From an uncultured Planctomycetaceae bacterium (GTDB lineage Bacteria; Planctomycetota; Planctomycetia; Isosphaerales; Isosphaeraceae): DNA of 64,000 nt. How positions within the stretch are numbered: position 1 is the stretch's first letter; each line of letters starts with the position of its first letter. Below, one piece after another: positions 19,158 through 45,975 of this stretch. The notes under the pieces are model-generated. The model ran no database searches and was not told the origin of the DNA. It worked only from the letters and a program-made list of their open reading frames with translations. The translations under genes and the position numbers were made by a program. The stretch lies in contig CAWIAD010000002.1 of assembly GCA_963833985.1 (NCBI GenBank), forward strand, positions 3,648,001 through 3,712,000, written 5' to 3'.

Positions 19158-19332
19158 AAGGAGCCTTCACCGGGCTCTCTCCATATACTTCGTCGGTGTC
19201 AGGCGGTGTGCGTGTCGGCTGATCCCCAGGCTGGGTGGCGCTGTCCCTGCCGATTTAAGGAGCCTTCACCGGGCTCTCTCCATATACTTCGTCGGTGTCA
19301 GGCGGTGTGCGTGTCGGCTGATCCCCAGGCTG
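19158..19332. repeat. Exact 76-bp direct repeat (19158-19233 and 19257-19332), each containing a minus-strand TGACACCGACGA
   Basis: Read directly from the sequence; 23-bp spacer. Confidence 0.9.
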
Positions 19333-20365
19333 AATGGCGGCGCTCTCTATATAATAATACGAGGGGCGAAGGCTACGGACGCCTCCCGCACCCGTCAGGG
19401 GCATTTGTAAGTCGCATGAGACTTACGACTTGGCGACATAATCTCAATCGAGAACGAAGGTTCCGCCAACCCCCATCCTGGCTCACGTCCCCCGTCTGGT
19501 CTCATTTCCGCCGCTCCTTCGCAGCCAACTGACACCGCCGATTGCGTCGTTGATAACCAACGACCAACCGGGAGTCAGTCATGCCAACGCAAGAACAACT
19601 CAGAGAGCAGATCACCGCACAAGTCATCGCCGCCTTGGAGTCCGGTGACGTGCCGCCGTGGAGAAGACCTTGGCGACTGGGCAAGAATGCTGGTTCCCCC
19701 GCCAACGTGGTCTCCAAGCGAGGCTACCGAGGGCTCAACCTGCTGCTCTTGGACGTGGCGGCGACTCGCCACAACCTGTCCAGTCGTTGGTGGGGAACTT
19801 TCAATCAGTGGCGGCAACTGGGCGGCAGGGTGATGTCTCGTCCAAGCCACGTTCCTCCTGGCAAATGGGGAACTCAGATCGTCTTCTGGGCTCCCGTCGT
19901 CAAGACAGTCGAAAACGAGAACGGCGAGGAGGAAGAAGACCGGTTCTTCTTCATGCGGACTTACTGCGTCTTCAATAGCGAGCAAGTTGATGGGCTTGAC
20001 CACCTCAAAGCCGGTCAACCTGACACCGGTAAGAACCACGTCGTCGATTTCCAGCCCGCCGAAGAGGCATTGGAAGCCAGTCTCTCTGGGATGCAACTGA
20101 GCCTTCGTTTTGGCGGGGGCAAGGCGTTCTACAACCCTGCCCAGGACTACGTGCAGATCCCACCAAAGGCGACCTTCGAGTCACTGAAAGAGTACTACGG
20201 AACCGTCTTCCACGAACTCGTTCATGCCACGGAACACGAGTCTCGGCTGAACTGGAGTCGGAAGGACAAAGACAAGACCTATGCCTTCGGGGAACTCATC
20301 GCCGAGTTGGGCGGCGTCTTCGTCTGTCGTGAGTTGGGAGTCCCGGCGAGCGATGACCTGACTAA

Positions 20366-21875
20366 TTCTACTGTATCTCTACGTTCGTAGTTGGTTCTTC
20401 AAAGGGGGTAAGAGTTTGCGTGAGTAATGCTGGAAGAATCGGGCGAGCTCGTTGCGTTCCAACCAACGTGTGGTGCACCGGGAGAGCTTCTCGGGGCTGT
20501 TGACGTTGAGACGTTCCTCGATGATCCCTGCGATCAGTTGCCGCAACCGCGGTGACGTCAATGCCGGTGTCTGTATTTTTTCCCCGCCGCGTCTCCTGAT
20601 TCAGGAACCACGCGGCCACGAGCGACAAGGTTTGATGGTGATGCCAGGCGATCCAGTTCCGCACCTGGTAATCGGCCAGGCCCGCCTCCCCTTTGCCCCG
20701 CTCCAGGCACTCCTCGATCCGATGCGCCAGTTTGGCCACCCGGCCAAATTCGATCAACGGAGTTTCGGCTTTACTATTTGATAAATAATAATCATGTTTA
20801 ACAGTTCCATCGGCCTGTTGCTCACGCGTGATGAAGAGGACCTCCTCGAAACCTGCACGATTGCCCGGTCCTCGAGATTGGACGCGCCGCTTGATCGCGT
20901 CGACCACCAAAGGTCCCTTCTCGCCATCACGGACGTCGAGCCTCGTCCACGCCGATTCCGGCAGGGCCGCACGCCAATGATCCACACGCATGAAAGGAGC
21001 CTTGGGGGGTTGACCCCGCCCCCCATATTCCGGTGGCGGTGCCTCCAGATCGCGGATCGTCGTGTTCGACGGAACCGCCAACAGATACTGCTCCCCCCGC
21101 TCCCTCAACGCCTGGCGAAAACTCGCGGGACGGCCCATTTCATCGTCCCCCGCCACCCACGCGTGTGGCAGCAACCCACCTTGCTCATCCAGCATCGCCA
21201 GGGCCAATTGATGGCGCGTCTGGAACTTGATGGACTTGGGGACGCCAGCCTTGTTCCGGCGGTCGCGATCCTTGGCCCATTCCTTGGGCAAGTAAAGCCT
21301 TACATTGGTAATCGTATGCTCTTTTCTAGACGCATAAGCCATGTAGACGCCAACCTGACAGTTCTCAACCTTCCCCAGCCGGCCGCACCACTGCCGCGCG
21401 ACGCCCACCGACATAGTCCCTTTCTTGGGGAAGCCCGAAGGGTCGAAGATAATCACCCCATCCTTCTCGCCCAGTTGCTCGCCGACCTGCTGCGCCAGGA
21501 TCGTGAGCAGGGGTTGATGATCCCATGGCACGTGCCCGATGAACTTTTGGATTCCTTGTCGTTCTTGATCGTGGAGATAAGCGATTCCCTCGCCGGTCTT
21601 GTGCTCAAGCTTCGACAGCAGACCGGTAACGTACTCGGTTGCATGTCGATGTTGTTCAGGTTCGCTCAGGGTCGCAGCGAACGGCTCGATGAAGACGTCC
21701 AACCGTTCCAGCAGACCATCGATCAAGTCAGGCGACACCTGCGATTGTGCCAGCATGTCAGCCAACCGTGCTTCGTATCGTCGATCCATGACGCCCTCGC
21801 TTCCTTGTAACATCCTTGACGGAAGCGAATATCAGAAAAAACCTTACAGTTCGTCAACCCCAGGATACAGTAGAA
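20366..21875 (-). mobile_element. IS701-family insertion sequence
   Basis: 12-bp terminal IRs TTCTACTGTATC (20366-20377) / GATACAGTAGAA (21864-21875). 4-bp CTAA target duplication at 20362-20365 and 24126-24129. Confidence 0.9.
20368..21789 (-). CDS. IS701-family DDE transposase
   Basis: IFDPSGFPKKG..SVGVARQWCGRLGKVENCQVGV and IEECLERGKGEAGLADYQVR.W..WHHH. Confidence 0.92.
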   Translation of the reverse strand: MDRRYEARLADMLAQSQVSPDLIDGLLERLDVFIEPFAATLSEPEQHRHATEYVTGLLSKLEHKTGEGIAYLHDQERQGIQKFIGHVPWDHQPLLTILAQQVGEQLGEKDGVIIFDPSGFPKKGTMSVGVARQWCGRLGKVENCQVGVYMAYASRKEHTITNVRLYLPKEWAKDRDRRNKAGVPKSIKFQTRHQLALAMLDEQGGLLPHAWVAGDDEMGRPASFRQALRERGEQYLLAVPSNTTIRDLEAPPPEYGGRGQPPKAPFMRVDHWRAALPESAWTRLDVRDGEKGPLVVDAIKRRVQSRGPGNRAGFEEVLFITREQQADGTVKHDYYLSNSKAETPLIEFGRVAKLAHRIEECLERGKGEAGLADYQVRNWIAWHHHQTLSLVAAWFLNQETRRGKNTDTGIDVTAVAATDRRDHRGTSQRQQPREALPVHHTLVGTQRARPILPALLTQTLTPFEEPTTNVEIQ

Positions 21876-24119
21876 CCTACTTTCCGCACATCTCGCCTTG
21901 ACTATCTCCTAATTTCCGTGTGCCGTCTTTCGGCCTGTCAGGCTCAAATCTCGTAGGCTTTGGGTATCCCCAGCAGGCGCAGGATCCTCTTCTGGAGCCG
22001 AGTTAACTCTGTGCTGAACACCTCAAGAGGGCGTTTCCCAGCCTTCAGGGAATGCTCTTGAACGTCCTCGTACAGGTCGATCACTTTTCGAGCCGTCGGG
22101 CGTCGGCAGGCCCGACCTTCGGAATACAGTGGCAGGCTCTCGATTCCCGCTCGTTCCATCGCGCGGCGGAGTTCTCGCTCCAACAGCGCCTCGACCAGCA
22201 ACACGAAGAAGTACACGCAGAGCAAGGCCTGAATCCGACTCACCTCCTTCAGGTACATAGGCGCTACCACGAAGTCAGTCTTCAGGTGCTCGAACCGTCG
22301 TTCGATGGCCGGTTGCTGTTTGTAGGCCAAGAGCAGATCCTGCTCCGTCATCTTCGATTCGTTGCTCACCAGCGGGAAAATGCCATCACAGCGGGCCTCC
22401 TCATCCAGTCGCTCCAACTCAATCCGATGCTTCAACGAGTAACGGAGCTTCTCCTCTCGGACGTACCGCGTGTCCTGTCCAGGCCGGCCGCGTCGCTCCT
22501 GGCGGAACTTTTCGGTGACCTGCTCCTCGATCTCGACCGAGATCCACTCGGTGACCTCACAGTCTCGGAGCAGCTCCTCGACCGCCTCGGCGACCTTGGC
22601 TCGACTGCGGTACCGGGTTCGGGACGAGGCGAGCTTGGCACGCAGTTCGTCCAGTCGTTTCAACGCCTTCTCCAGCCGGGTCAGCCGTACCTCCGCATCC
22701 AACTCGGCCTTGCGTGTGCTGTGATACCAGATCAGCCGGTAACCCTCGGTGGTCTGGCTCGCAGGTTTGCAGATCGAGAAGCGGTCGGTCAACTGTCCCT
22801 TGTCGTCGTACTTGTCGTGGGTCCATCGCCACTGGATCTCTCCCCGGAGTACGGCGCCGCGGAAGGCACCGTCCTCACTGCGAGTTCGCGGCAGCACGCT
22901 GAGGAACCGACCGCCGCGCTGATGCAGATAGGCCATGTTCTCGGTGGTGGCCAGCTTGCAGTCGGCGATGTAGAGAAAGTCTCGGCGTCCGGTCAGTTGA
23001 CAGAGCAACTCCCAGGTCTCCTGGTGAGAGCGGTCGTCGGTGGCGTTGCCGCTCTCGACGCGAAAGTGCACCGGGACGGCACCGTCGCCGGTCACGGTGA
23101 GGATGTAGAGTAGCTGCTTGAGGTCGGGGCGGTGGTCTTTGTTATGACCCCAGGTCACCGCCAACCGCAATTGTCCCCGCAGGGTTCGCTCCGCCTCCGC
23201 CGACTCGTAGTCACCGTGGAAAGTGATGGTGGTCGAGTCGTTGTGTAACTGGTCGAGGCTGACGTCGAATTCGCGTACGGCATGGGCCGCGACCTTCAGG
23301 GCCAACCCCGAGAGATTGGCGTCGAAGAGACGGTCGAGGGCCCGGCCAACTCGATCGTCGTTCATTGCGGCGACTTGGACATCGGACAACCCGAACAGTT
23401 TCGGCTCATGGCGGGCCACCCACTCACCGACACCATAGAGTGGCTCACGCGAGATCAGCAGGTTGCGCAGCAGGACGAGCAAGGCCGTGGCCGTGGGGAC
23501 CCGAGTGCGGCCGTCCTCATGGGGCAGGTGGTCGCAGAGAAACTCGCGAAGGCGGAGCCGACTCAGGAAGTGTTCCAGGATGGGCACGGCGGCAATCCGC
23601 CGCGTGTTGAGCGTGCGCTTGCGTCCCTTCGAGCGTGCCGTCTCGCCGGGTTGGCGCGGTCGTTGAGGTTCGTTCATGCGGATCATCTCCGGAGGGTTTG
23701 CAGCGAGTTGGCCGGTGTCCGCCGCCGGGCCTTCCAGGGCCGTGAGGGGAGCAGGCCGACCGCCGCAGGGCTTGCCGCAATGATGGCGGAGGAGATCGGG
23801 ACGTCAAGGACAAAAAATCTTGTGATTCACTTATGACAATTTGCCTTGACGTAAGTTGTGAGCCGCTCAACTTACGCTCATAGCCCGTGTCACAAGTCGT
23901 CGCGGCGAGAATCGCGGCGCGCGGCTGGACATTGCCAAGTCATAAGACAAGGCGAAGAATGGCTCGAGTTCAGGAACGGTCCGGTTGGCGAACCATCTGA
24001 ACCGAACAAGGTCCCCGTGCCGATCGACTTGTAGATGTTTACCGACCCTGGGGCCGCGTCTGAGAAGATGGCCTCAGGTCGAATTCGGGGAAATCAAAGG
24101 GAGATGTGCGGAAAGTAGG
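21876..24119 (-). mobile_element. IS1634-family insertion sequence
   Basis: 19-bp perfect IRs CCTACTTTCCGCACATCTC (21876-21894) and its complement (24101-24119). 6-bp GTAGAA duplication at 21870-21875 and 24120-24125. Confidence 0.9.
21944..23686 (-). CDS. IS1634-family transposase
   Basis: NDDRVGRALD, HNDSTTITFHG, GHNKDHRPDLKQ, YIADCKL and YKQQPAIERRF. Confidence 0.9.
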   Translation of the reverse strand: MIRMNEPQRPRQPGETARSKGRKRTLNTRRIAAVPILEHFLSRLRLREFLCDHLPHEDGRTRVPTATALLVLLRNLLISREPLYGVGEWVARHEPKLFGLSDVQVAAMNDDRVGRALDRLFDANLSGLALKVAAHAVREFDVSLDQLHNDSTTITFHGDYESAEAERTLRGQLRLAVTWGHNKDHRPDLKQLLYILTVTGDGAVPVHFRVESGNATDDRSHQETWELLCQLTGRRDFLYIADCKLATTENMAYLHQRGGRFLSVLPRTRSEDGAFRGAVLRGEIQWRWTHDKYDDKGQLTDRFSICKPASQTTEGYRLIWYHSTRKAELDAEVRLTRLEKALKRLDELRAKLASSRTRYRSRAKVAEAVEELLRDCEVTEWISVEIEEQVTEKFRQERRGRPGQDTRYVREEKLRYSLKHRIELERLDEEARCDGIFPLVSNESKMTEQDLLLAYKQQPAIERRFEHLKTDFVVAPMYLKEVSRIQALLCVYFFVLLVEALLERELRRAMERAGIESLPLYSEGRACRRPTARKVIDLYEDVQEHSLKAGKRPLEVFSTELTRLQKRILRLLGIPKAYEI

Positions 24120-24355
24120 GTAGAACTAACCACATTGCCTATCTCGGGAACTGGCTCCAAGCCATGAAGAACGATTCCCGGTTCATCATCATGGCGAGTG
24201 CTCAGGCGAGCAAAGCCGCCTCTTACATCCTGTCGTTCAGCAGGAAAGAGGAGGAAGTCCCTCAAGAAGACGGTGAACTGGTCACTGCCTGACCTCTTGC
24301 GGGAACGGAGTCCCGCAACCTGACACCGCCGAACAAACTGTCCCGATCGAGGACA

Positions 24356-24517
24356 ACCGGAACAGGGACGCCCGAGACGATCAAGTGGCGGCTCGGCTTT
24401 AGCGATCTACACGCAGCGTTGAACCGCTCCCTGAACTGCGCAGCAGCGGGCGGAATTCTGCTGCCATTGTGAACGCTCGAAGCCGCACTGGATCAACGAC
24501 GGCGTTCCCTGTCCGGT
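24356..24517 (+). ncRNA. Putative structured non-coding RNA or ssDNA rod (~160 nt)
   Basis: Nested complementary arms across an interval with no credible + strand ORF, beginning 35 nt after the motif at 24321. Confidence 0.5.
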
Positions 24518-24579
24518 CTCTTCTGAACCGACACCGCCGAGAGGGGTGCGAGAGCACCACACCCATAAGGGAGACGACC

Positions 24580-24798
24580 GTGAGCATTGGTGAAATGACC
24601 GCCGAACCTCAACTCGGCGACACGGCGTTTTATCGTGCTGCCATCCCACGAGCCAGGAAGCAACGAGTGACCGTATCGGGGTTGTTCCTGAATGGGCGCA
24701 TCAAAGTCACCTTCCCGGATGGGAGTTGGAAAAGCCTCCCACGTCATTATCACAAGCGGATTCAGAACGAGCGATTCGGGCTTGTAAGGATCGAATAG
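24580..24798 (+). CDS. Small hypothetical protein (72 aa)
   Basis: GGGAG RBS; GTG start 51 nt after a motif copy. Confidence 0.55.
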   Translation: MSIGEMTAEPQLGDTAFYRAAIPRARKQRVTVSGLFLNGRIKVTFPDGSWKSLPRHYHKRIQNERFGLVRIE

Positions 24799-24883
24799 CA
24801 GTCACAACCGCGACTTCAGCGTCACCGTTTGACACCGCCGAAAGGGATGTGAGATCAACACACACCTAGCAACGGAGATCAAC

Positions 24884-25489
24884 ATGACAGCACTGGGTGA
24901 AATGACCCTAGAAGATGCCGCAAAGCAAGCGGCAGGAAATTGGCAGCGTTTCGAGTGCTTTGTGTGGTTCAGGGACGAGGAGGTTGATGACCCCGACAAC
25001 TGGGTGATCATCTACACGCACAACAGAGACAGCGGTCTCCTTGACAAGAGCAACGCCGAAGCCATCGCCGAAGCGATGGAGCCGTTCACGAACGGTCACG
25101 ACCCGGATGTGGTGGTGGAATCCCATAACCACTGGGCAGTCGGGCACGTGGATGGCTTCAGCATCAGGGTTTACCGGGACGGTGAGATCACCGGAGCCTT
25201 CCGCACCTACCACGACCTGATGGAGCAAGTGGACGGCTACCCAATCCTGGATGAAGAGGATTATTGGGAACGGGAACTTGATGCGACCCTCGAAAACATC
25301 AGTGACGCCGCATGGCGTGTGAAGCACGAATACACCTTGCCCGAGGGCTGGGAAGGAGACGTTTACTCCTGGCTGAGCGACAACCGCTCGGGAGCCGTCG
25401 AGAACCGTGACGACCAAGGGGGCTATCCCGAAGAGGATGACCTTCGGGCGGCGTTCGCTGCCCTGGGCTATGAGCGGATCGAAGAGTAG
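24884..25489 (+). CDS. Acidic hypothetical protein
   Basis: 201 aa with GGAG RBS, motif-led. Confidence 0.75.
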   Translation: MTALGEMTLEDAAKQAAGNWQRFECFVWFRDEEVDDPDNWVIIYTHNRDSGLLDKSNAEAIAEAMEPFTNGHDPDVVVESHNHWAVGHVDGFSIRVYRDGEITGAFRTYHDLMEQVDGYPILDEEDYWERELDATLENISDAAWRVKHEYTLPEGWEGDVYSWLSDNRSGAVENRDDQGGYPEEDDLRAAFAALGYERIEE

Positions 25490-25547
25490 GACCGGGTGAC
25501 ACCGCCGAGGAGGGTGTGATGAACGCCCTCTTCGATGGAGTGAGACC

Positions 25548-25754
25548 ATGAACGAAAGCCCCGATGAGTGGCTCGAACGGCTCTTCGAGTTCGAGTACTG
25601 CCCAGAGTGCGGCGGCGATGCCGACGACCATGAAGTGAGCGTGGTCTTGGGGAATTACTTTGCGTGGTGCAAGCGGTCTCCCTTCGCCGACACCGCCGAG
25701 GAGGGTGTGATGAACACCCTCCCCGATGGAGCACGTGGGGCATCTGTGCCATGA
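25548..25754 (+). CDS. Small CxxC protein; the C-terminus runs through the next motif copy
   Basis: YCPECGG...WC; motif-led. Confidence 0.55.
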   Translation: MNESPDEWLERLFEFEYCPECGGDADDHEVSVVLGNYFAWCKRSPFADTAEEGVMNTLPDGARGASVP

Positions 25755-25825: not shown

Positions 25826-26191
25826 ATGGCACTGATTGAGCGAAACGGCAGGGTCTATGCCCGCAAACTGTGGATCTTCCTCGGCGCGAGCGAATGGGGC
25901 AACGACCTCATGAGGCTGGTCGCGAGGGAAGCCTTCGCCAATGACGCCAGCTTGGATGCCGTCCAGGTACACGAGCACGGTGGCTGGTATCTCACCTTCC
26001 TGCGAGGCGGCACGATCGTCGGCATCGCCAACGATCAGGCGCATCTCGATGACAGAGCCAATCGGCGGGAGAGATTCGCCGCCCCTGACACCGACGAGAA
26101 GGGCATGGATGCCATGCCGCAGAGCACACGCATGGGGAATACGAATGAGCAACTCAGGAATCACACCACGGTTCAGCCTTCTCCAACTTGA
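25826..26191 (+). CDS. Hypothetical protein; the C-terminus runs through the next motif copy
   Basis: GGAG RBS, MALIERNGRVY... Confidence 0.5.
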   Translation: MALIERNGRVYARKLWIFLGASEWGNDLMRLVAREAFANDASLDAVQVHEHGGWYLTFLRGGTIVGIANDQAHLDDRANRRERFAAPDTDEKGMDAMPQSTRMGNTNEQLRNHTTVQPSPT

Positions 26192-26543
26192 CGAGACCAA
26201 GTTCTGGGCGGATGAGGTTGTCCGTAGTGCCAAGCAGGTTTTCGGTCTTTACGTCTTTGACCAGAACAGGAGGGTCCATTGTTGCGAGTTCACACCCAGC
26301 TACGAGTGCGTCTTCGTCGGTTCCGCTATCGGGAACACCGACCTCGACGAAACCGCCAACGAACGGCTCGACACCGCCATCAGAGAGGGCGATCTGGAAA
26401 CCGAGCAGGTGAAGTACATCCACTGCCGCGAGATCGACGCCCTTCCGAAGATCGGCGATCAAGACCTCAAGGTGGGCGTCTCCGACCTCAACATCGATGA
26501 CGAAGAGGAAGCCCTGGAATACGTCCGACAGCGGGCTCTTTGA
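26145..26543 (+). CDS. Hypothetical protein (132 aa)
   Basis: MSNSGITPRF..., 59 nt after a motif copy. Confidence 0.65.
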   Translation: MSNSGITPRFSLLQLDETKFWADEVVRSAKQVFGLYVFDQNRRVHCCEFTPSYECVFVGSAIGNTDLDETANERLDTAIREGDLETEQVKYIHCREIDALPKIGDQDLKVGVSDLNIDDEEEALEYVRQRAL

Positions 26544-26594
26544 AGTGACACCGCCGACAAGTGCGACAGGCAACCCCCAACTCAGGAGACCCAC

Positions 26595-27488
26595 ATGGCA
26601 TTCACCGCTGATACCGGGGACCACAAAGTCACCCGCAGCGACATTTACCTCGTAGACCCCACGGCGCTGATCGTGGACTGGCGGAAGAACCTCAGCCGCA
26701 ACGGCGAGGAGCCACCCGTTGACGAACCTCTCATGGATCTGGCTCGCGACATGATGCCCAAGAGGGGGCAGGGCGACACGGAGGAGGGCACAAGCGGGCA
26801 ACTCAATCCGATCCTCGTTCGACCCCTCAGCGACCGTCGCCTGGAGGTGGTAGGCGGCTTCCGCCGCATGCGGGCAGCCCTCTGGCTCATCGAGTCGGGC
26901 ACGTGCCCCGACTTCAAGATCAAGTACGTCGTCAGCCGCCTGTCCGACGCCGAGGCGGCACTGATCAACCTCAGCGAGAACATCCAACGGGAAGATCCCA
27001 AGCCCATCCAGCTTGCCCACGCGGTACGGGCACTGACCGAGGATTATGGACTTACTCTCAAGCAGGTTGCAGGACGACTGAAACGCTCCGAGGCTTGGCT
27101 GTCGAATTTGCTCAACCTCGTGATGCTTCCCACTTCGATCCAGGAGAGCGTGGCGAACGGGAAGACTCCCGTCTCTGCCGCCCTTGAACTGACCAAGTTC
27201 CCGACCGACAAGCAGGTCGAGACCTTCAACGACCTGGCAGCCAGTGGCGAGAAAGTCACCGCTGCCAAGGTGCGGAAGAGGCGGCAGGAGACGCACGAGG
27301 CGACCGGTGAGGGCGGTCCCGTGCCCCGCACCCTCAAGCAACTGAGGGCATTCCTCGAAGGAAAGACCGGTCCCGCCGACCCCGGTCACAAGCTCGCCTC
27401 CTACCTGCTCGACTACCTGGCGGGCAAGAAGAGCGATGACAACCTGGGCAAGTACTGGGACAAGGCGTTCCCCGAAGGCAACGGCTGA
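26595..27488 (+). CDS. ParB/Srx-family protein with HTH
   Basis: GQLNPILVR, VVGGFRRMRA, LSENIQRED and an HTH (LKQVAGRLKRSEAWLS). Confidence 0.85.
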   Translation: MAFTADTGDHKVTRSDIYLVDPTALIVDWRKNLSRNGEEPPVDEPLMDLARDMMPKRGQGDTEEGTSGQLNPILVRPLSDRRLEVVGGFRRMRAALWLIESGTCPDFKIKYVVSRLSDAEAALINLSENIQREDPKPIQLAHAVRALTEDYGLTLKQVAGRLKRSEAWLSNLLNLVMLPTSIQESVANGKTPVSAALELTKFPTDKQVETFNDLAASGEKVTAAKVRKRRQETHEATGEGGPVPRTLKQLRAFLEGKTGPADPGHKLASYLLDYLAGKKSDDNLGKYWDKAFPEGNG

Positions 27489-27543
27489 CACCAACGTAGG
27501 GGGCGTGACCAACGCCCCCATCAAAAACCAAAGGGATCGCACG

Positions 27544-28768: not shown

Positions 28769-28969
28769 GACGCAAGCTCCTCGTGTCGCATCAGCAACCC
28801 TTCTAATCTTGGCACCGTCTACGACATCTGTCAATTCACTGCCTGCCAGTCTTCATTTGCCCAGGAGGAGCCCCTCAACTCCCTGGCTCAACAGTGCGAC
28901 TGCTGAGCCTGAACTGACACCGCCGATCCTCACGTTGAGAACGACAACCACATCAACGGGAGGATCAAC

Positions 28970-29410: not shown

Positions 29411-29501
29411 CAGTTCACGGGTGGGGCGGTAGTAGTGCCGTCTCACTCGACACCGCCGATGGCGGCATCAACTACTACTTGTCTTAAACGGGAGCGACTT
29501 C

Positions 29502-29810
29502 ATGAGCGTGAATGAGACCAAGAAGCCCTTGTTCGACCTTGGACAGATCGTCGCGACTCCCGGAGCCTTGGACGCCCTGCGAGACGCCAGGCAGACACTC
29601 GCCGAGTTCTTGACCCGTCACGTGAGCGGCGACTGGGGCGACCTCGATCAAGAGGATAGCAACCTCAATGACGCCGCCGTGATCGACGGCAGCCGCATCC
29701 TGAGCGCCTATCAGACACGCAAAGGGGAGCGGATTTGGATCATCACCGAAGCGGCTGATGACCAGGGGCACCGCTCTTCAAGCACGCTGCTTTTACCTCG
29801 GGAGTATTGA
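29502..29810 (+). CDS. Conserved plasmid/ICE-associated small protein
   Basis: LFDLGQIVATPGA, RHVSGDWGDL, RILSAY, IWIITEA and LLLPREY pattern, typical of mobile-element accessory genes. Confidence 0.75.
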   Translation: MSVNETKKPLFDLGQIVATPGALDALRDARQTLAEFLTRHVSGDWGDLDQEDSNLNDAAVIDGSRILSAYQTRKGERIWIITEAADDQGHRSSSTLLLPREY

Positions 29811-29914
29811 ACTCATCCCATTCCATCCCTTCTCGCCGGGCTGACACCGGTGAGACGGGTGTGAGATCAATCCCAGCCGTACCCAAGCACCAAGAGGGAC
29901 GATCACACCTGCGG

Positions 29915-30382: not shown

Positions 30383-30512
30383 GGCAATCCCTCCCTTTCG
30401 TCCATCCGGCACGCTTTCGACCAACACATCGTAACCCGCACGGGCACCTCCTGCACCCGACACCGCCGAGACGAATGTGAAATCAACGCCCTCAAACGTG
30501 AAAGGAAGATGT

Positions 30513-30764
30513 ATGACCGACCCAACCGAGGACATCCGGCGTCAGATGCTCGCCGAGATCAACGCCGCCCCCGGCTCCAGGGAGTATCTGGAGCACAAGC
30601 ACGGTCAGGTCTGGGATACCCAGCAATTGTCTGATGACTTCGAGGTGCTGGGGTTCGCCGCCCCGCTCGTCGTCGTGAAAAGGAAGAGCGACGGGCAGAA
30701 GGGGAGCCTCTGCTTCCAGGGCTCTCCCCGGTTCTACTTCGGGTTTGAGGCGCACAAGCCGTGA
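30513..30764 (+). CDS. Small hypothetical protein (83 aa)
   Basis: MTDPTEDIRR..., motif-led; its stop codon is the TGA of the next motif. Confidence 0.7.
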   Translation: MTDPTEDIRRQMLAEINAAPGSREYLEHKHGQVWDTQQLSDDFEVLGFAAPLVVVKRKSDGQKGSLCFQGSPRFYFGFEAHKP

Positions 30765-30815
30765 CACCGCCGAAGGGGGCGTTGAGAACGACGCCCCTTT
30801 CCCGGAGGAAGACCG

Positions 30816-31037
30816 ATGGCAGTGGCACTCCTGACAACCAGCGCAGTCGAGTCGATCCTGCGTGACGCAGTGGACAAAGGCTGTTACGTGGAACACAGCA
30901 AGTCTGATGGGACAGCCAAAGCGTTCCACAGTGGTGACTTGGTGTTCCAGTCCATCCAGAAGGGTAAAGACGGACCCTGGATCTGCCGGTTCGTCAACAC
31001 GGAACATATCACCTGGACCAGCACGACCGAAGACTGA
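30816..31037 (+). CDS. Small hypothetical protein (73 aa)
   Basis: GGAGG RBS; its stop codon is the TGA of the next motif. Confidence 0.65.
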   Translation: MAVALLTTSAVESILRDAVDKGCYVEHSKSDGTAKAFHSGDLVFQSIQKGKDGPWICRFVNTEHITWTSTTED

Positions 31038-31139
31038 CACCGACGACAAGGGCGGGAAGGGACGCCTGCCCCAATCAATTCCCAGAAGGGGTCGTCCACG
31101 CAATGTTTCGCGCCTATTGGCTCTCTCGGAGATCCTGAC

Positions 31140-31874: not shown

Positions 31875-31973
31875 CGATGTACAAAAGTGGGACGGCGAAA
31901 CGCTCGATCGGCTGACACCGCCTAGCGGGCTCCGGAGAACGACCCTCAGCACCCCTCACCGGGAAACTCAGCC

Positions 31974-32875: not shown

Positions 32876-33079
32876 CTACCCTTCGGTCGATGGCGTAACA
32901 ACGGATTCTCTCTGCTCCACTCGACGGATCGCCTCGTAGACCTCTCGCCTGTGGACCGTCACTCCCTTTGGGTGCTCAACCCCAAGCCGCACCTTGTCAC
33001 CCCTGATCTCGATCACCGTGAGGATGATGTCGTCGCTGATGACGACGCTCTCGCCTATCTTCCGGGGGAGCACGATCAC
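32876..33079 (-). CDS. csrA: Carbon storage regulator CsrA/RsmA
   Basis: MIVLPRKIGESVVI...DKVRLGVEHPKGVTVHRREVY; AAGGAGG RBS and GTG start. Confidence 0.9.
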   Translation of the reverse strand: MIVLPRKIGESVVISDDIILTVIEIRGDKVRLGVEHPKGVTVHRREVYEAIRRVEQRESVVTPSTEG

Positions 33080-33322
33080 GGCTGAACCTCCTTGATGGGT
33101 CTCTTGGATGGGAGAGTCCCGATCCCTCAGCAACCAGCCGGAAATAGAGTTGATACGCCGCGAATCTGACCATTCCTCGACCTTGCTGTCAATGCTATCC
33201 ACGTGCCCAGAGCGCCACCATATCCGATCCCTTTTTCTTATGTCCCTACGTTAGCATCTCCTGACACCGCCGAACTGGTCGTAAAAATAACCCATCCGGC
33301 AATAAGATCAGGAGATCCAGCG

Positions 33323-33781
33323 ATGACCACGACCCAAGAAGCACAAGCGCGATTCGTTGAGGTGGCGTATCCGAGGGCGTTGAAAGCAGTCCATCAGGCA
33401 TTCAAGTATTGGCACATTAAGAAGCGGCAGGATGCTGTCCAGGAATGCCTTGCGAAAATGTGGGATCAGTGGATTAGGTTGGTGAACAAAGGACGAAACC
33501 CGGAGCCAATGCTCGGACGCCTAATTTACTGGTCAATCCTCTGGGTTCGATACGATCGACGCATCGCAGGCAGAGCCCGCAACATCGACGTGACCGATTT
33601 CAGATCAGGCATGAAGCAGCAACAAATCAGCAGCAGGGGCGAGGTCAGCCCCACTGATAGAAGCGATCAGATGAACGGCTGGATCAATTGGACCGTGAGC
33701 GCGAGAGCGGACGATCCGGCTCTTCTCGCCTCTTCATTGGAGGAAGTGGGGCTCACCCTGGAACAGTGGGTGCGTGTGTAG
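33323..33781 (+). CDS. Sigma-70 region-2-like protein apparently lacking the region-4 HTH
   Basis: RQDAVQECLAKMW resembles the ECF region 2.2 DxxQE motif. 152 aa, AGGAG RBS, motif 61 nt upstream. Confidence 0.5.
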   Translation: MTTTQEAQARFVEVAYPRALKAVHQAFKYWHIKKRQDAVQECLAKMWDQWIRLVNKGRNPEPMLGRLIYWSILWVRYDRRIAGRARNIDVTDFRSGMKQQQISSRGEVSPTDRSDQMNGWINWTVSARADDPALLASSLEEVGLTLEQWVRV

Positions 33782-34188
33782 GATGATCGTCACGGGGCGG
33801 TGGGATCACCTGCCGCCCCTGGCTGACAGGAGTGGAGCGGGAAATCTGGCTGCTGACTGACACCGACGAAATAGACGTGAGAGTTGTGAGGGGACGGTAA
33901 GGATGGGTTGGTTGCAGAGTTGTTAAAGCAACAATTCCAGGGTTTCTAATGAAAACTCGGTTCCATAGGCGGCGTGGGTGGAACAATACCGAGGGTGGTT
34001 TCATTTATTGTTACTTCGGAATCGGAGGATTCCCCCAGGGAGGCTGAAAAGATCGCCAGAAAGTCGAGGTCTGAAAATCGCCGTTGGGAAATCGGGGGCT
34101 GGCAGGGTTCGACTAAAGACCTCCCCACCCCTAGTCGGATCAATGTAGATCTCGATCCTCTCGTCGGGGATGGCAACTCTCTCTGTCT

Positions 34189-37354: not shown

Positions 37355-40300
37355 CTAATCCATGACCGTAATCACCCTTTCTTCACCGCCTCGAAGTAAG
37401 GTCAGCCGAAGGTCCGGCTTGATGCCCAACTCAATGGCGATTCCCGGCAATTGTGAGGAGTCGTGACAGACGGGAATCCGCTTCTCGTCAATTACGATGA
37501 GCATGTCACCGACCTTCATACCTGCGGCAGCGGCAAGTCCGTCCGGTTCGACCCTATCGACAACGACTTGCCCGCGATCGACCCTCAATCCGAGTCCGAG
37601 GGGACGGTCTCTTCGTGCTTTGAGAACCACGTTGCAGATGGACCCAGAGGGTGGTGGACCACCCTTCTTCGAGGGAAAGAACAAGGCATCCAGGGTCATC
37701 AGTTTTGCCAATTGCTGCTGCGTCTGCGGTAACAGAAGGCGCACCTCGTCAGGTCGGGACAGTTGGATCGTTCTATCGACCATCACGGATTTCTGGTCCC
37801 GTCCATTAGCTACCCCGACATCACTGCCAGCCACTCGCAGCGTGGCACTTTCCCGCAGACCGTCCTGTGACTGTAAGTTCAGTGTGACGACGGATGACCC
37901 CGAGACGAACTGGACACCGAGTTGTGCATCCGCGAACTCCGTGATGTCTAGGCTCAATGTGCAGGGGAAGCGGAAGGCTCTTGGGTAGACAAGCAGACCA
38001 GCGGGCTGCTTCGGGTCGGATGCATGGACGACGAGTGAGGCTCGCTCTTGAATTCCCGACTTTTCTTGGGTCGTTCTTGTGGAAAACCAGTTAGTGACCG
38101 GAGTAAGAGCATCTGCCGATAGCTTCGCCTCATCAGGGATCGACCGACCCAGGATCACCCGGCATTCACCTTCCTTGGATACCGTAATGCGTAGTCTGAC
38201 CGGCTCAGGCTTGGGACTATCCTCACTGATGCGAAGGATCACTCCCATCGGGAGGTCAGGGCGCTGCTCGTGATAGTAGTGGAACTCATTGTCACCTGGA
38301 CGGAGAAACTTGGTCACGTCGAGGTAGCGCTTCAGATCGGCTCTCTTGTAATCGTTGGTTTCCTCATAAGCGGTCCCCTTCGTATAGTCTTGGAAGACAA
38401 ATATATTCGGAGGCTTCCCATTGAGGAATTTGACCACGTTCTTCCCATTGATCTGAAGGTGACCTTCCCAGGCAGCATTGAGTGTCTGATCGCTCAAGTC
38501 GCCTCGATAGAAGGCAATCTCAGCCTTCGTGAATTGCTGCGGCATGGCGACGTTCCAGGTGCGTCCGCTCTTGGTCAACGTAAATGAGCCCAAATCCTTC
38601 ACGGCGGGCGAAGATCCAGTCGGTGTGACTGGATTCGCTTGCCGACTAATCACTCCCCGCATCCTCAATAGCCTAATCACCTTGTCATTCCTCGCCAGGG
38701 CACATAGCCGACCACTAGCCGAAAGCGCCAAAGAAAGGATGGGAGCCGTTTCGTCGCCGTATTCAAACACCTGCTCACCGGTCTTGGCGTCCCACAGACG
38801 GAGGGTCTTGTCCGTGGAACCCGATAGAAGATACCTGCCGTCAGGAGTGTAGGCGACAGATCTAACATTTTTCGTGTGCTTCTTGAACGTGGTCACCTCC
38901 CTGGTGCTCTTCAGGTCGATAACTCTGACGACTTCTCCATCTCCGTATGCGATGTTTGAGCCATCGGGCGAGACAACGATGCTCCAAATGCAGAGCCTAT
39001 TTTGCCCTATTGCCGCTTTTCTTATGTACGGTCGCTGGCTGACATCCCAGACCCAGATCTCAGGAGGGAGTCCGGTCTTTATGGATGGCTTCCCCCTCGG
39101 TTCGGTGTTAAAGATGGCACCCTCGAAGAGCGACTTGCCATCGGGCGAATAAGCTAAAGACCAGATACCGTTGTTCTCGGAAGGAATCGTCGTCTTGATC
39201 GGGATTCTGGGATCGGTCAGATCCCAGAAATAGACCAAGCCATTGTCAATGTCCGCAGTCGCTAATGTCTTGCCATCGGGGCTGAATGCAATCGCAAGCA
39301 CGTCGTCGATGTGCTTTCTCAGGATGTGCAGCAATCTCGGTGGCGTCTTGCTGGCATCCCAGAGGACAATACGACCAGCGTTCCCCGCCGCCGCCAGCCA
39401 TTTCCCGTCCGGTGAGAAAGCGACTTTGTTCAACTCCTTCGGTGGCTCGGTCGATGACGTTGCCAAAGTGATCTGCGTGTTACCCGCTCGGTCTCCGTCG
39501 ATGTTCCAAAGTCGGACAGTCGAATCCGCAGAGGCACTCGCCAGCCATTTCCCGTCTGGACTGAATGCTACACTCATCACAAGTCCATTGTGTCCCTCAA
39601 GCCCTTGTATGCCTTCGATTGAAGGAACGCTGTCAGCAGGCGTCGGCGTCGAAGAGTTCTCCCGTTCAGCCGGGGCAAGAGCGACATGAGAGACTGCGTT
39701 CGTTACAGCAGTTTGAGCCCGCGCTTCTTCCGCAGGAGGAGTGGCAACCGTGGGTGGCGGTTCTGGTTCGGGCTTCGCCACAAGCGGTGCTATTGAGGGC
39801 TGGGATTGTGACGTTGGCTGATTTGCATCCTGGGCGTTGCGGCTCTGGTTGATCAGGAAGTACCCGCCTAGAAGGAGCCCGAGGCAGACAAGCCCCACCG
39901 CGATTGGCAGGATCGGCTGTCCACTTCGTCTCGCATGGATTCTCGGAAGAGGCGCTGGCACCGTCTCAGGTTTATAGCCGCTCGCGACCCCCAAAGCCTC
40001 TGGGGCTTCATCGTCACTAACGACTGGGCGTGACCGGTAGGTCTTGTCTACCGGCTTTCCGTCAGCAAAGATCTCCAGCTCTTCCTTGGCATCGGCTTTC
40101 CCCGCTCGTTTCCAGAAACGCTCATTTCCCAACTCGACTTCAGAAGTGAACGATGCCCGCTTGGCTTGAGAGGAAGGCACGGGGCGCGTGGGATCAATTA
40201 GGAGCATCTCCTGAACGTCCTCACTGGCTCCCTCCTGGTCGCCAATGGCACTACGGCATTCCGCCCGCACCGAGAAGGCGGCGGCATTGCGAGGTTCAAG

Positions 40301-40612
40301 GGTCAGAGCAAATGTCGCATCGGCAATCGCTTGGTCGAAGTGGTTTCGTCGCTTGAGGATCTCGGCGCGAATCACGTAGGGACCGGACTGCTGGGGGTCA
40401 AGGCGAATAGCTACGGCGAGATCGGCAAGCGCACGTTCCAGCTTGTTTAGCTTGCGGAGAGCCTCTGCCCGCACCAGATAGGCGGCGGTTTGCTTACTAT
40501 CCAGGCGGATCGCCTCGGTCGCTCGTTCTACCGCCTGGTGTAATTGTCCTTGTACGAGATGCAGTCTGGCTGTCTGGAGCAGTTTTTGGACCTCGGATAC
40601 TGACGTACCCAT
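37355..40612 (-). CDS. TPR-TM-WD40-PDZ protein
   Basis: N-terminal TPRs, TM helix, GH...VAFSPDG...WD repeats, and a C-terminal PDZ (LGLGL...GLAAAAGMKVGD). Confidence 0.85.
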   Translation of the reverse strand: MGTSVSEVQKLLQTARLHLVQGQLHQAVERATEAIRLDSKQTAAYLVRAEALRKLNKLERALADLAVAIRLDPQQSGPYVIRAEILKRRNHFDQAIADATFALTLEPRNAAAFSVRAECRSAIGDQEGASEDVQEMLLIDPTRPVPSSQAKRASFTSEVELGNERFWKRAGKADAKEELEIFADGKPVDKTYRSRPVVSDDEAPEALGVASGYKPETVPAPLPRIHARRSGQPILPIAVGLVCLGLLLGGYFLINQSRNAQDANQPTSQSQPSIAPLVAKPEPEPPPTVATPPAEEARAQTAVTNAVSHVALAPAERENSSTPTPADSVPSIEGIQGLEGHNGLVMSVAFSPDGKWLASASADSTVRLWNIDGDRAGNTQITLATSSTEPPKELNKVAFSPDGKWLAAAGNAGRIVLWDASKTPPRLLHILRKHIDDVLAIAFSPDGKTLATADIDNGLVYFWDLTDPRIPIKTTIPSENNGIWSLAYSPDGKSLFEGAIFNTEPRGKPSIKTGLPPEIWVWDVSQRPYIRKAAIGQNRLCIWSIVVSPDGSNIAYGDGEVVRVIDLKSTREVTTFKKHTKNVRSVAYTPDGRYLLSGSTDKTLRLWDAKTGEQVFEYGDETAPILSLALSASGRLCALARNDKVIRLLRMRGVISRQANPVTPTGSSPAVKDLGSFTLTKSGRTWNVAMPQQFTKAEIAFYRGDLSDQTLNAAWEGHLQINGKNVVKFLNGKPPNIFVFQDYTKGTAYEETNDYKRADLKRYLDVTKFLRPGDNEFHYYHEQRPDLPMGVILRISEDSPKPEPVRLRITVSKEGECRVILGRSIPDEAKLSADALTPVTNWFSTRTTQEKSGIQERASLVVHASDPKQPAGLLVYPRAFRFPCTLSLDITEFADAQLGVQFVSGSSVVTLNLQSQDGLRESATLRVAGSDVGVANGRDQKSVMVDRTIQLSRPDEVRLLLPQTQQQLAKLMTLDALFFPSKKGGPPPSGSICNVVLKARRDRPLGLGLRVDRGQVVVDRVEPDGLAAAAGMKVGDMLIVIDEKRIPVCHDSSQLPGIAIELGIKPDLRLTLLRGGEERVITVMD

Positions 40613-40738
40613 CGTTGCTCTCACTTTCCTCGAATGATCTCCTGCCTGCCGTGAGCCGATTTAAGAGGTTGCCATCCGTCACTGATCGAGGCAGTGATCC
40701 GGCTCCTACTTGGTCAATGTACTGCATCAACGGTGGTG

Positions 40739-42223: not shown

Positions 42224-43609
42224 CTACCGTTCAGACGAACGCTTCAGAGACAGCGAGATCATCAACGTGTTGGGAGCCTGATAGGAGCGAAGACTCCTCG
42301 GTCTCTCACTGGTTTCGCTTGCGTTGTAGACGTAGCACATCCGTAGCGTGTCGCCGTCTAATTCGTAGATACCCTTGAACCATTGGTGCCCGCCGAGTGG
42401 TCCCTTCCCGTGAAAGTCGAAGGTTCGTGCTGCCTGATCGATTTTTATATTGCCAACGTAAACCCCGTTCTTGCCCTCTCTGATCCGGGACATTACGAAG
42501 TTGTCACCCGAGATGGTGATCCGACGTTCCTGGGTGATTGGGTCCGCCACACCGTTGGACTCCTCGGTAACCATGACCCAATGACCTTGAAGCTGGTTGA
42601 GGACATCCAGGGGCGCTTTAGAGGTCTCGAAGCCAGCCGGGTCTATCTGCGCCGGAATGGAAGCTGACGGCAAAGCCGCCACCCTAGGTAGCGTGAAAGG
42701 GTCCGAGGACTTGACTTCGAGAGTCTCGCCGGTGTGTTGGATCGGAACGCTCGGATTCCCACGCTGCTGCACTGTCGGCTCGGGGGAGGTGTTCTGCGTG
42801 AGTGATGGTGCCCTCGCGGCTTCGGGAGCGACCGGACCTCGGTTCGGCATCAAGAACCCGATGAAGCCAGCGCCAGCAAGCCCAAGCAAGATCCACAGCC
42901 AGGTAGGGTTGCTCCCCTGCCGTGTTGCGCGGATACGAGGAAGAGGAGTCGGAACTGTCTCGGTCTTATAGCCACTGGCTACTCCTAGGGCTTCCGGCGC
43001 ATCTTCATCACTAATGACACGGCGTGATCGGTAGGACGTATCAACTGGCTTACCATCCGCGAACACCGCTCTGTCGTCCCGGACCTTACTGCCTGCCTCC
43101 TTCCAGAAGCGCTCATCATCTGACCCAATCTTGGGAGCGGAGTCGCCGGGTGGAACCCTTGTCCCAAGGGTCGGCACTGGACGGGTGGGATCGATGAGGA
43201 GCATCTCCTGCACGTCCTCGTTGGCTCCTTCCACATCCCCGATGGCGCTACGGCATTCCGCTCGTATCGAGAACGCGGCTGAATTACGTGGATCGATGGT
43301 CAGGGCATACGTGGCGTCGGCGATAGCCTGGTCGAAGTGGTTCCGCCGCTTGAGGATCTCGGCACGAATAACGAATGGACTAGGGTTTTGAGGGTCAAAA
43401 CGTATGGCGACAGCAAGATCGGCAAGAGCCCGGTCAGGGTGCTTGAGCCTACGGTGGGCTTCTGCCCGCACCAGATAAGCGGCGGGTTGCTTGCCGTCTC
43501 GGCGGATCGCCTCGGTTGCCTGCCCGACTGCTTCGTGAAGTTCACCCTTACCCAGATGCAGCCTCGCAGCCTGGAGCAGTCGGTCGACCTCGGTAGCGGG
43601 CGAACTCAT
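42224..43609 (-). CDS. TPR-TM protein with a C-terminal Planctomycete TIGR03067-like domain
   Basis: TPR N-terminus paralogous to 37355-40612; LQGHW...GIYELDGDTLRMCY. Confidence 0.8.
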   Translation of the reverse strand: MSSPATEVDRLLQAARLHLGKGELHEAVGQATEAIRRDGKQPAAYLVRAEAHRRLKHPDRALADLAVAIRFDPQNPSPFVIRAEILKRRNHFDQAIADATYALTIDPRNSAAFSIRAECRSAIGDVEGANEDVQEMLLIDPTRPVPTLGTRVPPGDSAPKIGSDDERFWKEAGSKVRDDRAVFADGKPVDTSYRSRRVISDEDAPEALGVASGYKTETVPTPLPRIRATRQGSNPTWLWILLGLAGAGFIGFLMPNRGPVAPEAARAPSLTQNTSPEPTVQQRGNPSVPIQHTGETLEVKSSDPFTLPRVAALPSASIPAQIDPAGFETSKAPLDVLNQLQGHWVMVTEESNGVADPITQERRITISGDNFVMSRIREGKNGVYVGNIKIDQAARTFDFHGKGPLGGHQWFKGIYELDGDTLRMCYVYNASETSERPRSLRSYQAPNTLMISLSLKRSSER

Positions 43610-43904
43610 CGTCGCCTTCTTTCCTCGAATGATCACCTGCCTGCCGCCAAACAACTGAACCTGTTGCGCTGAGTCCCACGCCCTCGTGAATGACGGTCCC
43701 AGCCCCAACGACCGCTTCTGGCTACCTGGGAAAGCGGAAGCAGATGGCAATCAGGCTCACCAGTCGCGCGATCCCGGTGAGAGAACGGTCGCCCCTCTCG
43801 GCGGTGTCAGTCCACGACACCCAGGGCTGACGGGCGACCACGCCCGCACTCCTTCCATGATAAAATGCGCCGGGGCTGAATACTAGTTATTGTCTGTCTA
43901 TTTA

Positions 43905-43920: not shown

Positions 43921-43948
43921 AGGAGGCACCCATCATAAACTCGCCCCG

Positions 43949-44185: not shown

Positions 44186-44309
44186 ATCCCCGACCAGGCA
44201 ATGCGCCCTGGACTCGCTGACACCGCCGAGCGTCCCGGACGACCGCTCCCCGACCTCCTCCGTGGACTTGGGGATTGCCAGGCGGTCCTGGGTGGGAGGC
44301 TCGGTGTTG

Positions 44310-44681
44310 ATGTCTCGGAAGCTTGACGAGAGGCTCAGGATGGTCCTGGCGATCGCTGAGGCGATGCGGCATGAGTTCGGCGTGGGGATCGACGCTCATC
44401 CCGGAGGACAAGGGATCGAAGCGGGGTCGATCAACAGAGCGCTCCGGGTGGCTGCCAGGACGATCGTCGCCGATGTCACCACGGAAGGGGACGACACGGC
44501 GAAGCTCTTGACGCAGGTTTTACGGCAGGCAGCGCTACGGCGGCTGACGGAACTTGGCGTACGGCTGGAAGACGCTGAGGTATTGATCTGTTCAGAGCCG
44601 AAGCTGGGGGACCGCTGGATCACTTACCTGGCGCTCGCCCCGGTTGCAGTCATCGATGATCTGCTTGATCATCGACACTGA
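44310..44681 (+). CDS. Hypothetical protein
   Basis: GGGAGG RBS; downstream of the motif at 44218. Confidence 0.55.
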   Translation: MSRKLDERLRMVLAIAEAMRHEFGVGIDAHPGGQGIEAGSINRALRVAARTIVADVTTEGDDTAKLLTQVLRQAALRRLTELGVRLEDAEVLICSEPKLGDRWITYLALAPVAVIDDLLDHRH

Positions 44682-44694
44682 ACTCACTTTGCTA

Positions 44695-45363
44695 GCCCTG
44701 GCGTGCTGGACGCCAAGTCGCAAGTCCTTAAAGCCAACCCCCGCCAGCCTTTATCTTGTCAATCTCGTCGATGAACACGATGCCCCTTTGTGCGGCTTCC
44801 AGGTCACCACCGGCAGCTTGGATCAATCTGACGAGCAGGCTTTCCACGTCCTCACCGACGTAGCCAGCCTCGGTGAGAGACGTGGCATCACCAATCGCGA
44901 TGGGAACGTTGAGGTAACTTGCCAGGCTTCTGACTAGGTGGGTTTTGCCTGAGCCCGAGGGACCGATCAGGAGGATGTTGCTCTTCTCGATTCGCACATC
45001 CCGTAGGTCGCGGTCAGCGATTATCGGGTCGGGAGCGTCACGATCCCAGGCATCGATGAGACGCTTGTAGTGGTTGGTGACTCCAAGCGCGAGTCGCCTT
45101 TTGGCGATCTCTTGCCCGATGACGTATTGGTCAAGATGAGCAACCAGGGACTTGGGGGAAGGGATCGACGCGAGACGCGCCTCACGGGAGGGGGGATCAG
45201 CGGGTGGGGTTGGCTCGGGGACTGGCTGGGGAGTGATCTCGGTGACCGCCTGGGCGGCACAGGTGCCACAGATGCGGATTGGATTGTCCCACACGCCGCC
45301 CTCGAAAAGCTGGGTGGTCACTTGTTTGCCGAAGTCACAGGAAGAAGGTTGGTCATCGGGCAT
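44695..45363 (-). pseudogene. clpX: Truncated ClpX paralogue
   Basis: [42 protein letters not shown] and FIDEIDKI. A frameshift near 44740 continues as [12 protein letters not shown]; the C-terminal half is missing. Confidence 0.85.
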
Positions 45364-45701
45364 GGGGACACCGGGGATCAGAGGCGTACCGCGACCACCA
45401 CGATGGCAGTCGGATGCCCCCTCCGTCGGTGTCAGGCACTTGTGAGCCGATAGCTTGCAGGTCCGAAGGGAGGATGGGTCGGGCTGGCACTGGGCGGTGA
45501 TTTGAAGACCGGTACAGCCGGGGCGTGCTTCACTTGAGGGGTGCTCGGGAGGTGGGCTCTAGCAAAGGCTGATCCGGGTATTGACTCTCTTGAATCGAGA
45601 TTCGTCCGTACTCCGGTGAAGTACCCGGGAGTTAGGGTGAAAGCGAGTATCAGATCGTTGATGGATGGACTTGCGGCGGAACGCAGGGAACGTTGCAGGA
45701 C

Positions 45702-45899: not shown

Positions 45900-45975
<76 letters not shown>

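Follow-up and report, generated by a model that had tools for sequence, protein, structure and literature searches.

What is the short repeat that stands ahead of nearly every small gene at one end of a genomic island in an uncultured Planctomycetaceae bacterium, and what reads it? We analysed a 64,000-nt stretch of contig CAWIAD010000002.1 (assembly GCA_963833985.1, positions 3,648,001 to 3,712,000; hereafter the window, whose coordinates are used throughout). The left 46 kb of the window is the terminal part of a 132.5-kb island of genome G000 (G000:C2:3561377-3693948), bounded by a 47-bp repeat of the end of a tRNA-Ala gene. An earlier note on this DNA had proposed that the repeat, here called the box, is a dedicated promoter or activator box. 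An element-specific regulon is supported by the enrichment of the box in the island, the lack of a host regulon, the fixed spacing of its parts, its island-by-island variants and the presence of two variants in one host; the choice of a promoter over an RNA-level site is still one of inference. Judging from these sequence patterns, the repeat is probably an element-specific bipartite promoter with a short spacer and a -10 element (YRT) like that of extracytoplasmic function (ECF) sigma factors. The box likely allows the island to turn its genes on jointly, independently of the host and of neighbouring islands. By sequence comparison the feature is class-wide, broader than the single island of the earlier note.

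Distribution of the box in the island and the host genome

The 12-mer YGACACCGMCGA occurs exactly 19 times in the window (16 on the + strand and three on the - strand), against a mean of 0.06 and a maximum of 1 in 100 shuffles, which bears out the repeat first described. With one mismatch allowed, the window holds 25 copies against 2.07 in shuffled sequence. The earlier totals of 19 + strand copies between 19530 and 33869, where 15 are exact, and of about 24 in all, are reached only when degenerate copies are counted (those at 20021, 25794, 27486, 29842, 31913 and 45423). The whole 10.16-Mb genome contains 38 exact 12-mers, of which 19 lie within window positions 19190-44229. A loose core pattern was found 21 times in the last 27 kb of the island on the tRNA side (78 per 100 kb), three times in the other 105.6 kb of the island (2.8 per 100 kb, the background level) with 244 further occurrences in the other 10.02 Mb of the genome (2.4 per 100 kb). 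The enrichment over the host genome is clear, but the repeat is not island-wide, being restricted to the tRNA-side 27 kb. As had been reported, no copy lies in the 18,026 bases to the right of the tRNA gene.

A search around 4575 host open reading frame (ORF) starts gave no convincing host regulon: the core pattern fell five times in the 50-59 bin versus 0-4 times in other bins, and a looser pattern 16 times versus 3-14 elsewhere. Sigma70-type promoters are not in excess in the array (4 sites versus 4.1 by chance), and terminators are not enriched (9 versus 13.1).

All 13 box-to-start distances quoted in the earlier note were correct. The box does stand ahead of most backbone genes, but the copies at 24321 and 33858 have no gene and that at 31035 sits 105 nt from its ATG. 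The four reported minus-strand copies are present but lack the tight leader: one is 72 nt from an ATG, one faces its own 99-bp duplicate, one is 59 nt from a TTG without a Shine-Dalgarno sequence, and one stands at 71 nt, also without a Shine-Dalgarno sequence.

Architecture of the repeated unit

The unit reads YGACACC-NN-CGR-N6-YRT, followed by an A/C-rich leader, a Shine-Dalgarno sequence and, usually 48-56 nt from the box, a start codon; in relatives gathered via the sigma-like gene it reads YGACACC-NN-CGR-N6-YGT. A weak second element had been placed near position 19 of the unit. It is present, but is better described as YRT fixed at positions 19-21, and position 19 is a pyrimidine in 21/21 aligned window copies. 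Among non-redundant leaders, YRT begins at position 19 in 95/138 from the host family (no other offset between 15 and 24 exceeding seven), as against 50/98 from other families (none exceeding nine). In a further set of 109 leaders, drawn from 178 copies by excluding those without a Shine-Dalgarno sequence and start codon at 40-75 nt, YGT occupies position 19 in 74, with five or fewer at other positions. For the GGACC-type box, YRT prefers position 20 (10/31). Two elements at a fixed spacing are what an ECF sigma promoter has. Upstream of position 1 there is no conservation, the conserved stretch is confined to 21 bp, and positions 23-34 are 72% A+C in leaders of both the host family and other families.

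A hairpin spanning approximately positions 13 to 36 outdoes controls in which N6 was swapped (z -10.6) and favours neither strand in the 109 leaders. The hairpin of the earlier note is real on average, but weak or missing in many individual copies.

Box variants in related islands

Two markers were used to gather relatives. The sigma-like gene led to 48 metagenome loci and to strong matches in 16 other genomes among 121 of the order; the 83-aa marker gene F1 is present in 46/401 genomes of the class, three other families accounting for 33 of these. Arrays were detected by de novo 6-mer counts upstream of genes and then with hand-chosen seeds. Because the relatives are kin, counts over related islands are not independent. 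The island family spans four or more families of the class, and its gene order is mostly colinear: a divergent box, ardC, small boxed genes, the sigma-like gene, a terminal box, a 215-bp non-coding site and often a gene designated F14. A box array is present in 19/20 stretches from three other families, the exception being G798. Twelve further stretches comprised five clear arrays, two apparent new variants (by eye) and five without an array.

The box is uniform within each island and differs between islands, the variants being TGACACC-CG-CAA, GGACACC-GG-CAA, AGGCACC-TG-CTA, TAACACC-CG-CTT, YGACACT-CG-CAA and YGGACC. At box positions 8, 9 and 12, agreement within islands exceeds that between islands (0.27 versus 0.071 permuted; control positions, 0.061 versus 0.030). 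Matches to the AGGCACC variant fell on the island's own contig in 19/19, 14/14, 17/17, 12/13 and 4/6 cases in the genomes concerned. Genomes G581 and G638 each carry two islands with unlike boxes, and the box version therefore belongs to the island and not to the host. In relatives, a box also precedes a ParB-methylase gene. A copy within ardC was found in 12/30 ardC genes, several of these copies being equal to their own island's variant.

A phylum-wide pattern search, in a sample without other host-family members, returned mostly scattered chance matches. Viral contigs yielded no sigma2-only relative (see below), no strict-leader match, and no array in 65 pattern loci or in three phage-like contigs with F1 or F8 homologs; no box-bearing viral contig, and therefore no helper phage, was identified. 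One contig filed as viral (L294, L295, L297) carries short genes in an array, with an attC-like repeat that includes TGACACCGCC; this is probably a chance likeness.

Candidate readers of the box

The best candidate for the reader in the G000 island, though not a universal one, is a 152-aa protein that we term the sigma2-only factor. In its structural model (pLDDT 80), residues 1-84 have a sigma2 fold, with SigH and SigR ranked first by VIA-align; the match to SigH (Z 9.2, rmsd 2.0 over 75 residues) and that to SigR (Z 9.1) are middling for a helical domain. Foldseek returned nothing at E 0.001, though its best rows were ECF sigmas, and the protein has no Pfam or NCBIfam match. The C-terminus is modelled as three short strands and two short helices and not as a sigma4 helix-turn-helix, and an alignment of 55 homologs ends at the same C-terminus.

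A predicted complex with the beta' clamp of RNA polymerase scored 0.73 versus 0.01 for the best control, with runs sharing at least 98% of contacts and pLDDT of at least 74; the mark used is reached by 116/157 solved and 2/215 mismatched pairs. The predicted contacts are D37, Q40, E41, A44 and W47, in helix 37-51. This outcome may reflect likeness to solved sigma2 complexes. A box-like 7-mer lies upstream of 47/57 sigma2-only genes versus 14/499 control windows, as it does for most array genes, and divergent sigma2-only clades have other boxes upstream. A search of genome contigs with the single protein gave one spurious match.

The sigma2-only factor matches a full-length sigma-like protein, F16, at E 0.0026, and F16 is a likely ancestor of the sigma2-only gene. 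F16 adjoins that gene in some islands (L135:3624-4178, L130:1796-2368, L126:1437-2012). A second sigma2-only clade occurs mid-array in L056, L118, L127 and L063, and L056 has both clades.

Four other proteins were rejected as a universal reader. A full ECF sigma factor, N18, sits with a kinase at the tRNA end of several islands, mostly without a box upstream; its clades track box type and predicted the AGGCACC box of the second G638 island. Its last helix (SLATL/VKRRW) is nevertheless identical for three box types, it is present in the array-less G798 and it was not found in 5/10 genomes, leaving it a minor candidate. F1 is 60-80% conserved whatever the box, falls into 1242 clusters and occurs in box-less phages as well. 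The csrA gene is present in only 6/45 element stretches. F14 was not found in 5/10 genomes tested; it has a winged-helix-like N-terminus and the polymerase-like motifs DxxNSQP and IHDS (L065:6548-7993, L196:18300-19637), and look-alike clusters occur in Bacteroidota and viruses.

A promoter model and its alternatives

In the model that we favour, YRT would act as the -10 element and the box would be recognised instead of a -35 element, at a distance some 5 bp shorter than usual. RNA would start near position 29-33, leaving 20-25 nt of A/C-rich leader. In the G000 island we tentatively propose the sigma2-only protein as the reader: its sigma2 domain would contact RNA polymerase, and its own C-terminal part would recognise the box. 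Islands without this gene would use another factor or one supplied by a helper. Since the array shows no enrichment of terminators, the short hairpin would arise in read-through RNA. We prefer a promoter to a site linked to the ribosome-binding site because boxes precede the non-coding units at 24321 and 33858, where the latter would be unneeded. A broader picture is less likely than not: a private transcription code in which a compact promoter with mutually exclusive box versions has co-resident islands switched separately, read here by a sigma4-less sigma factor with a new C-terminal domain, and with an undescribed structured RNA of 175 nt among its targets.

Several findings weigh against the promoter model or its proposed reader. 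The gap from the 7-mer to YRT is 11 nt (12 in the GGACC type), shorter than the spacer of approximately 16 nt of ECF promoters. An example is the ShbA promoter, CGTAAC-N16-CGATGA (PMC12019637), which the unit resembles in being bipartite with fixed spacing and a YG-containing -10-like element, and perhaps in a copy upstream of the sigma gene, and from which it differs in this gap and in a candidate sigma factor without sigma4. The sigma2-only gene was found in 14/98 host-family genomes and in 0/302 others searched. Six host-family arrays lack it within 20 kb, and there was no match in G429 (91% complete) or G404 (65%) and a weak one in G444 (72%). No regulator is common to all 45 element stretches. 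The hairpin covaries over positions 13-21 in the host family (64/138 versus 31.9 expected), which needs a second explanation because these positions are promoter DNA in the model, and 70/168 upstream ORFs end within -12..+3 of the box, as expected of cassette junctions. The hairpin and the abutting stop codons are the main facts favouring an RNA-level or a cassette explanation.

The first of these would have one long transcript in which box and hairpin form a processing or translational-control site, yielding single-gene RNAs and the structured RNA. Hairpin covariation from position 13, the unenriched terminators, the two boxes flanking the structured RNA in the G000 island and a csrA paralog inside the array are all consistent with it. 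We nevertheless consider it unlikely, given that the hairpin is far weaker in other families (28/129 versus 12.1) while the box spacing is retained, that the box also stands at the first genes of units, that few stretches carry csrA and that no promoter was found for the long RNA. We give less credence still to recombination sites that bound gene cassettes and are homogenised through exchange. Homology between islands often begins at the box (491/1294 alignment starts within -10..+9, a figure that is biased because the box seeds alignments), boxes lie within local duplications, upstream stops abut the box and the in-ardC copy tracks the island's variant in several cases. The gene order is nonetheless largely colinear, the box lacks palindromic symmetry, each N6 remains with its gene and recombinases are patchy across stretches; the integron-integrase model TIGR02249 scores 74.6 versus a cut-off of 265, and the array is in these respects unlike an integron attC array.

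It is also very unlikely that the box is a promoter for F14 as a minimal single-subunit polymerase (450-560 aa, IHDS and GRxH/Y motifs) carried by some islands. F14 adjoins arrays in the host family and in other families, shows polymerase-like motifs by eye, and the TGACAC core is presumably comparable to T7/SP6-type promoters. However, the genomes in which F14 was not found include G000, the complete G581 and G070, the protein matches nothing in PDB or Pfam, this reading does not account for the conserved YRT 7-9 bases beyond the box, and a replication role beside the conserved non-coding site is equally likely. An equally slim chance attaches to the view that the boxes act in a conjugative leading region, as priming sites or as single-stranded-DNA promoters of the kind described for plasmids (PMC12282955). 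The ardC and parB-like genes are co-oriented toward the conserved non-coding site and a long rod-shaped structure lies next to ardC, and the island resembles plasmid leading regions in having anti-defence genes in a co-oriented cluster with stem-loops. Unlike those promoters, the boxes occur on both strands and the hairpins are short and variable; the rod folds better on the sense than on the template strand, and no relaxase or type IV secretion system (T4SS) family was found among 89 scanned island and window proteins.

If the promoter model is true, one island family provides a natural set of matched promoter variants as well as a candidate sigma factor that lacks a -35-reading domain. With this set, a change of regulon specificity can be tested directly at 10-20 sites simultaneously, the coding sequence of ardC included, and the reader in regulator-less islands is testable in cultured strains with two variants. 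The box is also a tag for finding such islands across Planctomycetes, together with their small early genes, which by their company with ardC are likely anti-defence genes.

Comparison with known systems

The concept of a co-activating box in a mobile element is known; the compact architecture, the per-island versions, the sigma4-less candidate and the new RNA set this case apart. The literature searched, mostly without subscription papers, held no description of the island family or the box. According to PMC4542580, FlhCD-like activators bind the AcaCD (IncC) and SetCD (SXT/R391) boxes, which overlap the -35 of sigma70 promoters, and SGI1 and MGIs are islands that borrow a helper's activator. 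The islands studied here likewise have a single asymmetric box at many backbone genes, including the integrase of G616 (59 nt downstream of its box), with element-family-specific motifs, and like SGI1 and MGIs they may lack an activator and use a helper's. By this analogy, a helper-supplied factor would fit the regulator-less islands. Unlike AcaCD and SetCD targets, G000 boxes have no TATAAT-like -10, do not overlie the -35 of sigma70 promoters beyond chance, and a separate copy accompanies nearly every small gene. No Pfam match to an FlhCD-like activator was present among the 89 proteins, though no search was aimed at it.

As described in PMC6294495, Reg576 of p576 represses sigmaA promoters via dual TTATCCC, and the CUP elements of pKM101 exceed 400 bp. 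Here too, repeats stand ahead of ardC-type anti-restriction and establishment genes, but the island unit is single and 21 bp long, neither a long nor a dual-heptamer operator, and is not beside a sigma70 promoter. GACAC, GCACC and GGACC were absent from the searched text of the ECF classification supplement (PMC7826278), whose logos and Table S2 lie outside that text and may bear on the comparison.

Non-coding targets of the array

Two conserved non-coding features accompany the boxes. The rod-shaped, RNA-like structure is common to 13 aligned islands, with 20/37 pairs changed on both sides versus 12.0 in shuffled and 4-8 in slid controls, the structure being derived from the same alignment. 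It folds better on the sense strand (-32.4 versus -15.8) and matches no Rfam family, and an Rfam scan of 17000-46000 placed the tRNA alone above threshold. The rod lies between two boxes in the G000 island, forms the leader of the following gene in some islands, and is absent or shortened in others. Its closing stem begins at approximately position 32-37, directly past the predicted RNA start. No guide-like complementarity between rod and box was seen by eye.

The 215-bp site, with A/T tracts, lies downstream of the array in more than 20 loci. It was rejected as an RNA, its consensus energy being 0 for either strand, and has no conserved reading frame. It is likely a DNA cis-site, and possibly an origin or transfer site.

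Feature map and context of the island

Table 1. Features of the box array in window coordinates
Position	Strand	Feature	Remarks
19190..19201	-	Box, divergent	ATG of 137-aa ORF 72 nt on
19289..19300	-	Box, divergent	In 99-bp tandem duplication (19152-19240 / 19251-19339)
19530..19550	+	Box + N6 + CGT	ardC leader, 51 nt
19581..20390	+	ardC (ArdcN + MPTase-PolyVal)	269 aa versus about 300-315 in relatives; two IS break 3' end
20021..20041	+	Degenerate box with CGT	Within ardC, at inter-domain linker
20356..24126	-	Two multi-copy insertion sequences (IS)	Transposases DDE_5 and DUF4277/DDE_Tnp_1
24321..24341	+	Box + N6 + TGT	Before structured RNA; no gene
24351..24523	+	Conserved rod-shaped RNA-like structure	175 nt; z -4.85
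24529..24549	+	Box	Leader of 72-aa gene 24580-24798, 51 nt
24830..24850	+	Box	Leader of 201-aa gene 24884-25489, 54 nt
25497..25517	+	Box	51 nt to start of 68-aa gene 25548-25754; near-duplicate of 43 bp at 25688
25688..25708	+	Box, duplicate of 25497 copy	No Shine-Dalgarno-led gene
26086..26106	+	Box	Leader of 132-aa gene 26145-26543, 59 nt
26546..26566	+	Box	Leader of parB-like gene 26595-27488, 49 nt
27486..27506	+	Degenerate box	Its TGA doubles as parB stop codon; 58 nt to start of 311-aa ATPase-like gene 27544-28479
28915..28935	+	Box	Leader of 146-aa gene 28970-29410, 55 nt
29448..29468	+	Box	Leader of 102-aa core gene F3 29502-29810, 54 nt
29842..29862	+	Degenerate box with TGT	No Shine-Dalgarno-led gene
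30458..30478	+	Box	Leader of 83-aa core gene F1 30513-30764, 55 nt
30762..30782	+	Box	Its TGA doubles as F1 stop codon; 54 nt to start of 73-aa gene 30816-31037
31035..31055	+	Box	105 nt ahead of 244-aa tyrosine recombinase 31140-31874
31913..31933	+	Degenerate box	Leader of ORF at 31974, 61 nt
32876..33079	-	csrA paralog	Divergent from sigma2-only gene
33262..33282	+	Box + N6 + CGT	Leader of sigma2-only gene, 61 nt
33323..33781	+	152-aa sigma2-only factor	Residues 1-84 ECF sigma2 fold; without sigma4 helix-turn-helix
33858..33878	+	Terminal box	No gene downstream
33899..34113	+	Conserved non-coding site with A/T tracts	215 bp; ends in GGGTTCGAC
43798..43809	-	Box	Facing TPR gene
44218..44229	+	Box	Ahead of conserved gene F18 (about 44310-44681)
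45423..45434	-	Box, one mismatch	Ahead of short clpX-like gene 44728-45363
45901..45974	-	tRNA-Ala(GGC), end of island	47-bp repeat 132.5 kb leftward

The G000 genome is 96% complete. At the far end of its island, an integrase-like gene is, by eye, broken by IS elements, and no box was seen upstream of it. A scan of 54 proteins of the window and, from the island's left part, 35 of the larger ones found no relaxase, T4SS or capsid family. The cargo of the island includes a cluster of helicase, methylase and restriction-nuclease genes (SNF2, Eco57I, DEAD-MZB and Mrr; L002:13089-20000, L003:231-10618). Between the WD40 and TPR genes lies an internal duplication, 71% identical (window 39937-40651 / 42931-43646).

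Upstream of the 244-aa tyrosine recombinase is a quasi-palindromic site (window about 31085-31125), which in relatives (L127, L042, L133) reads ATTTCGCAGAA-N6-GTCCCCGAAAT; the slot of this gene is taken by a serine resolvase in other islands. G000 also has a second, IS-broken island remnant (L006:10600-15700, G000:C2 about 1308600-1313700), with a 69% copy of the 201-aa gene that has a different leader and a TGACAGCAGCCGA variant downstream. Island integrases of 557-578 aa have a C-terminal helix-turn-helix and no Phage_integrase Pfam match (L226:9343-11079, L227:6981-8654, L231:12150-13847). Finally, a very acidic 71-aa protein of family N16, a possible DNA mimic, is encoded in several arrays (L203, L184).

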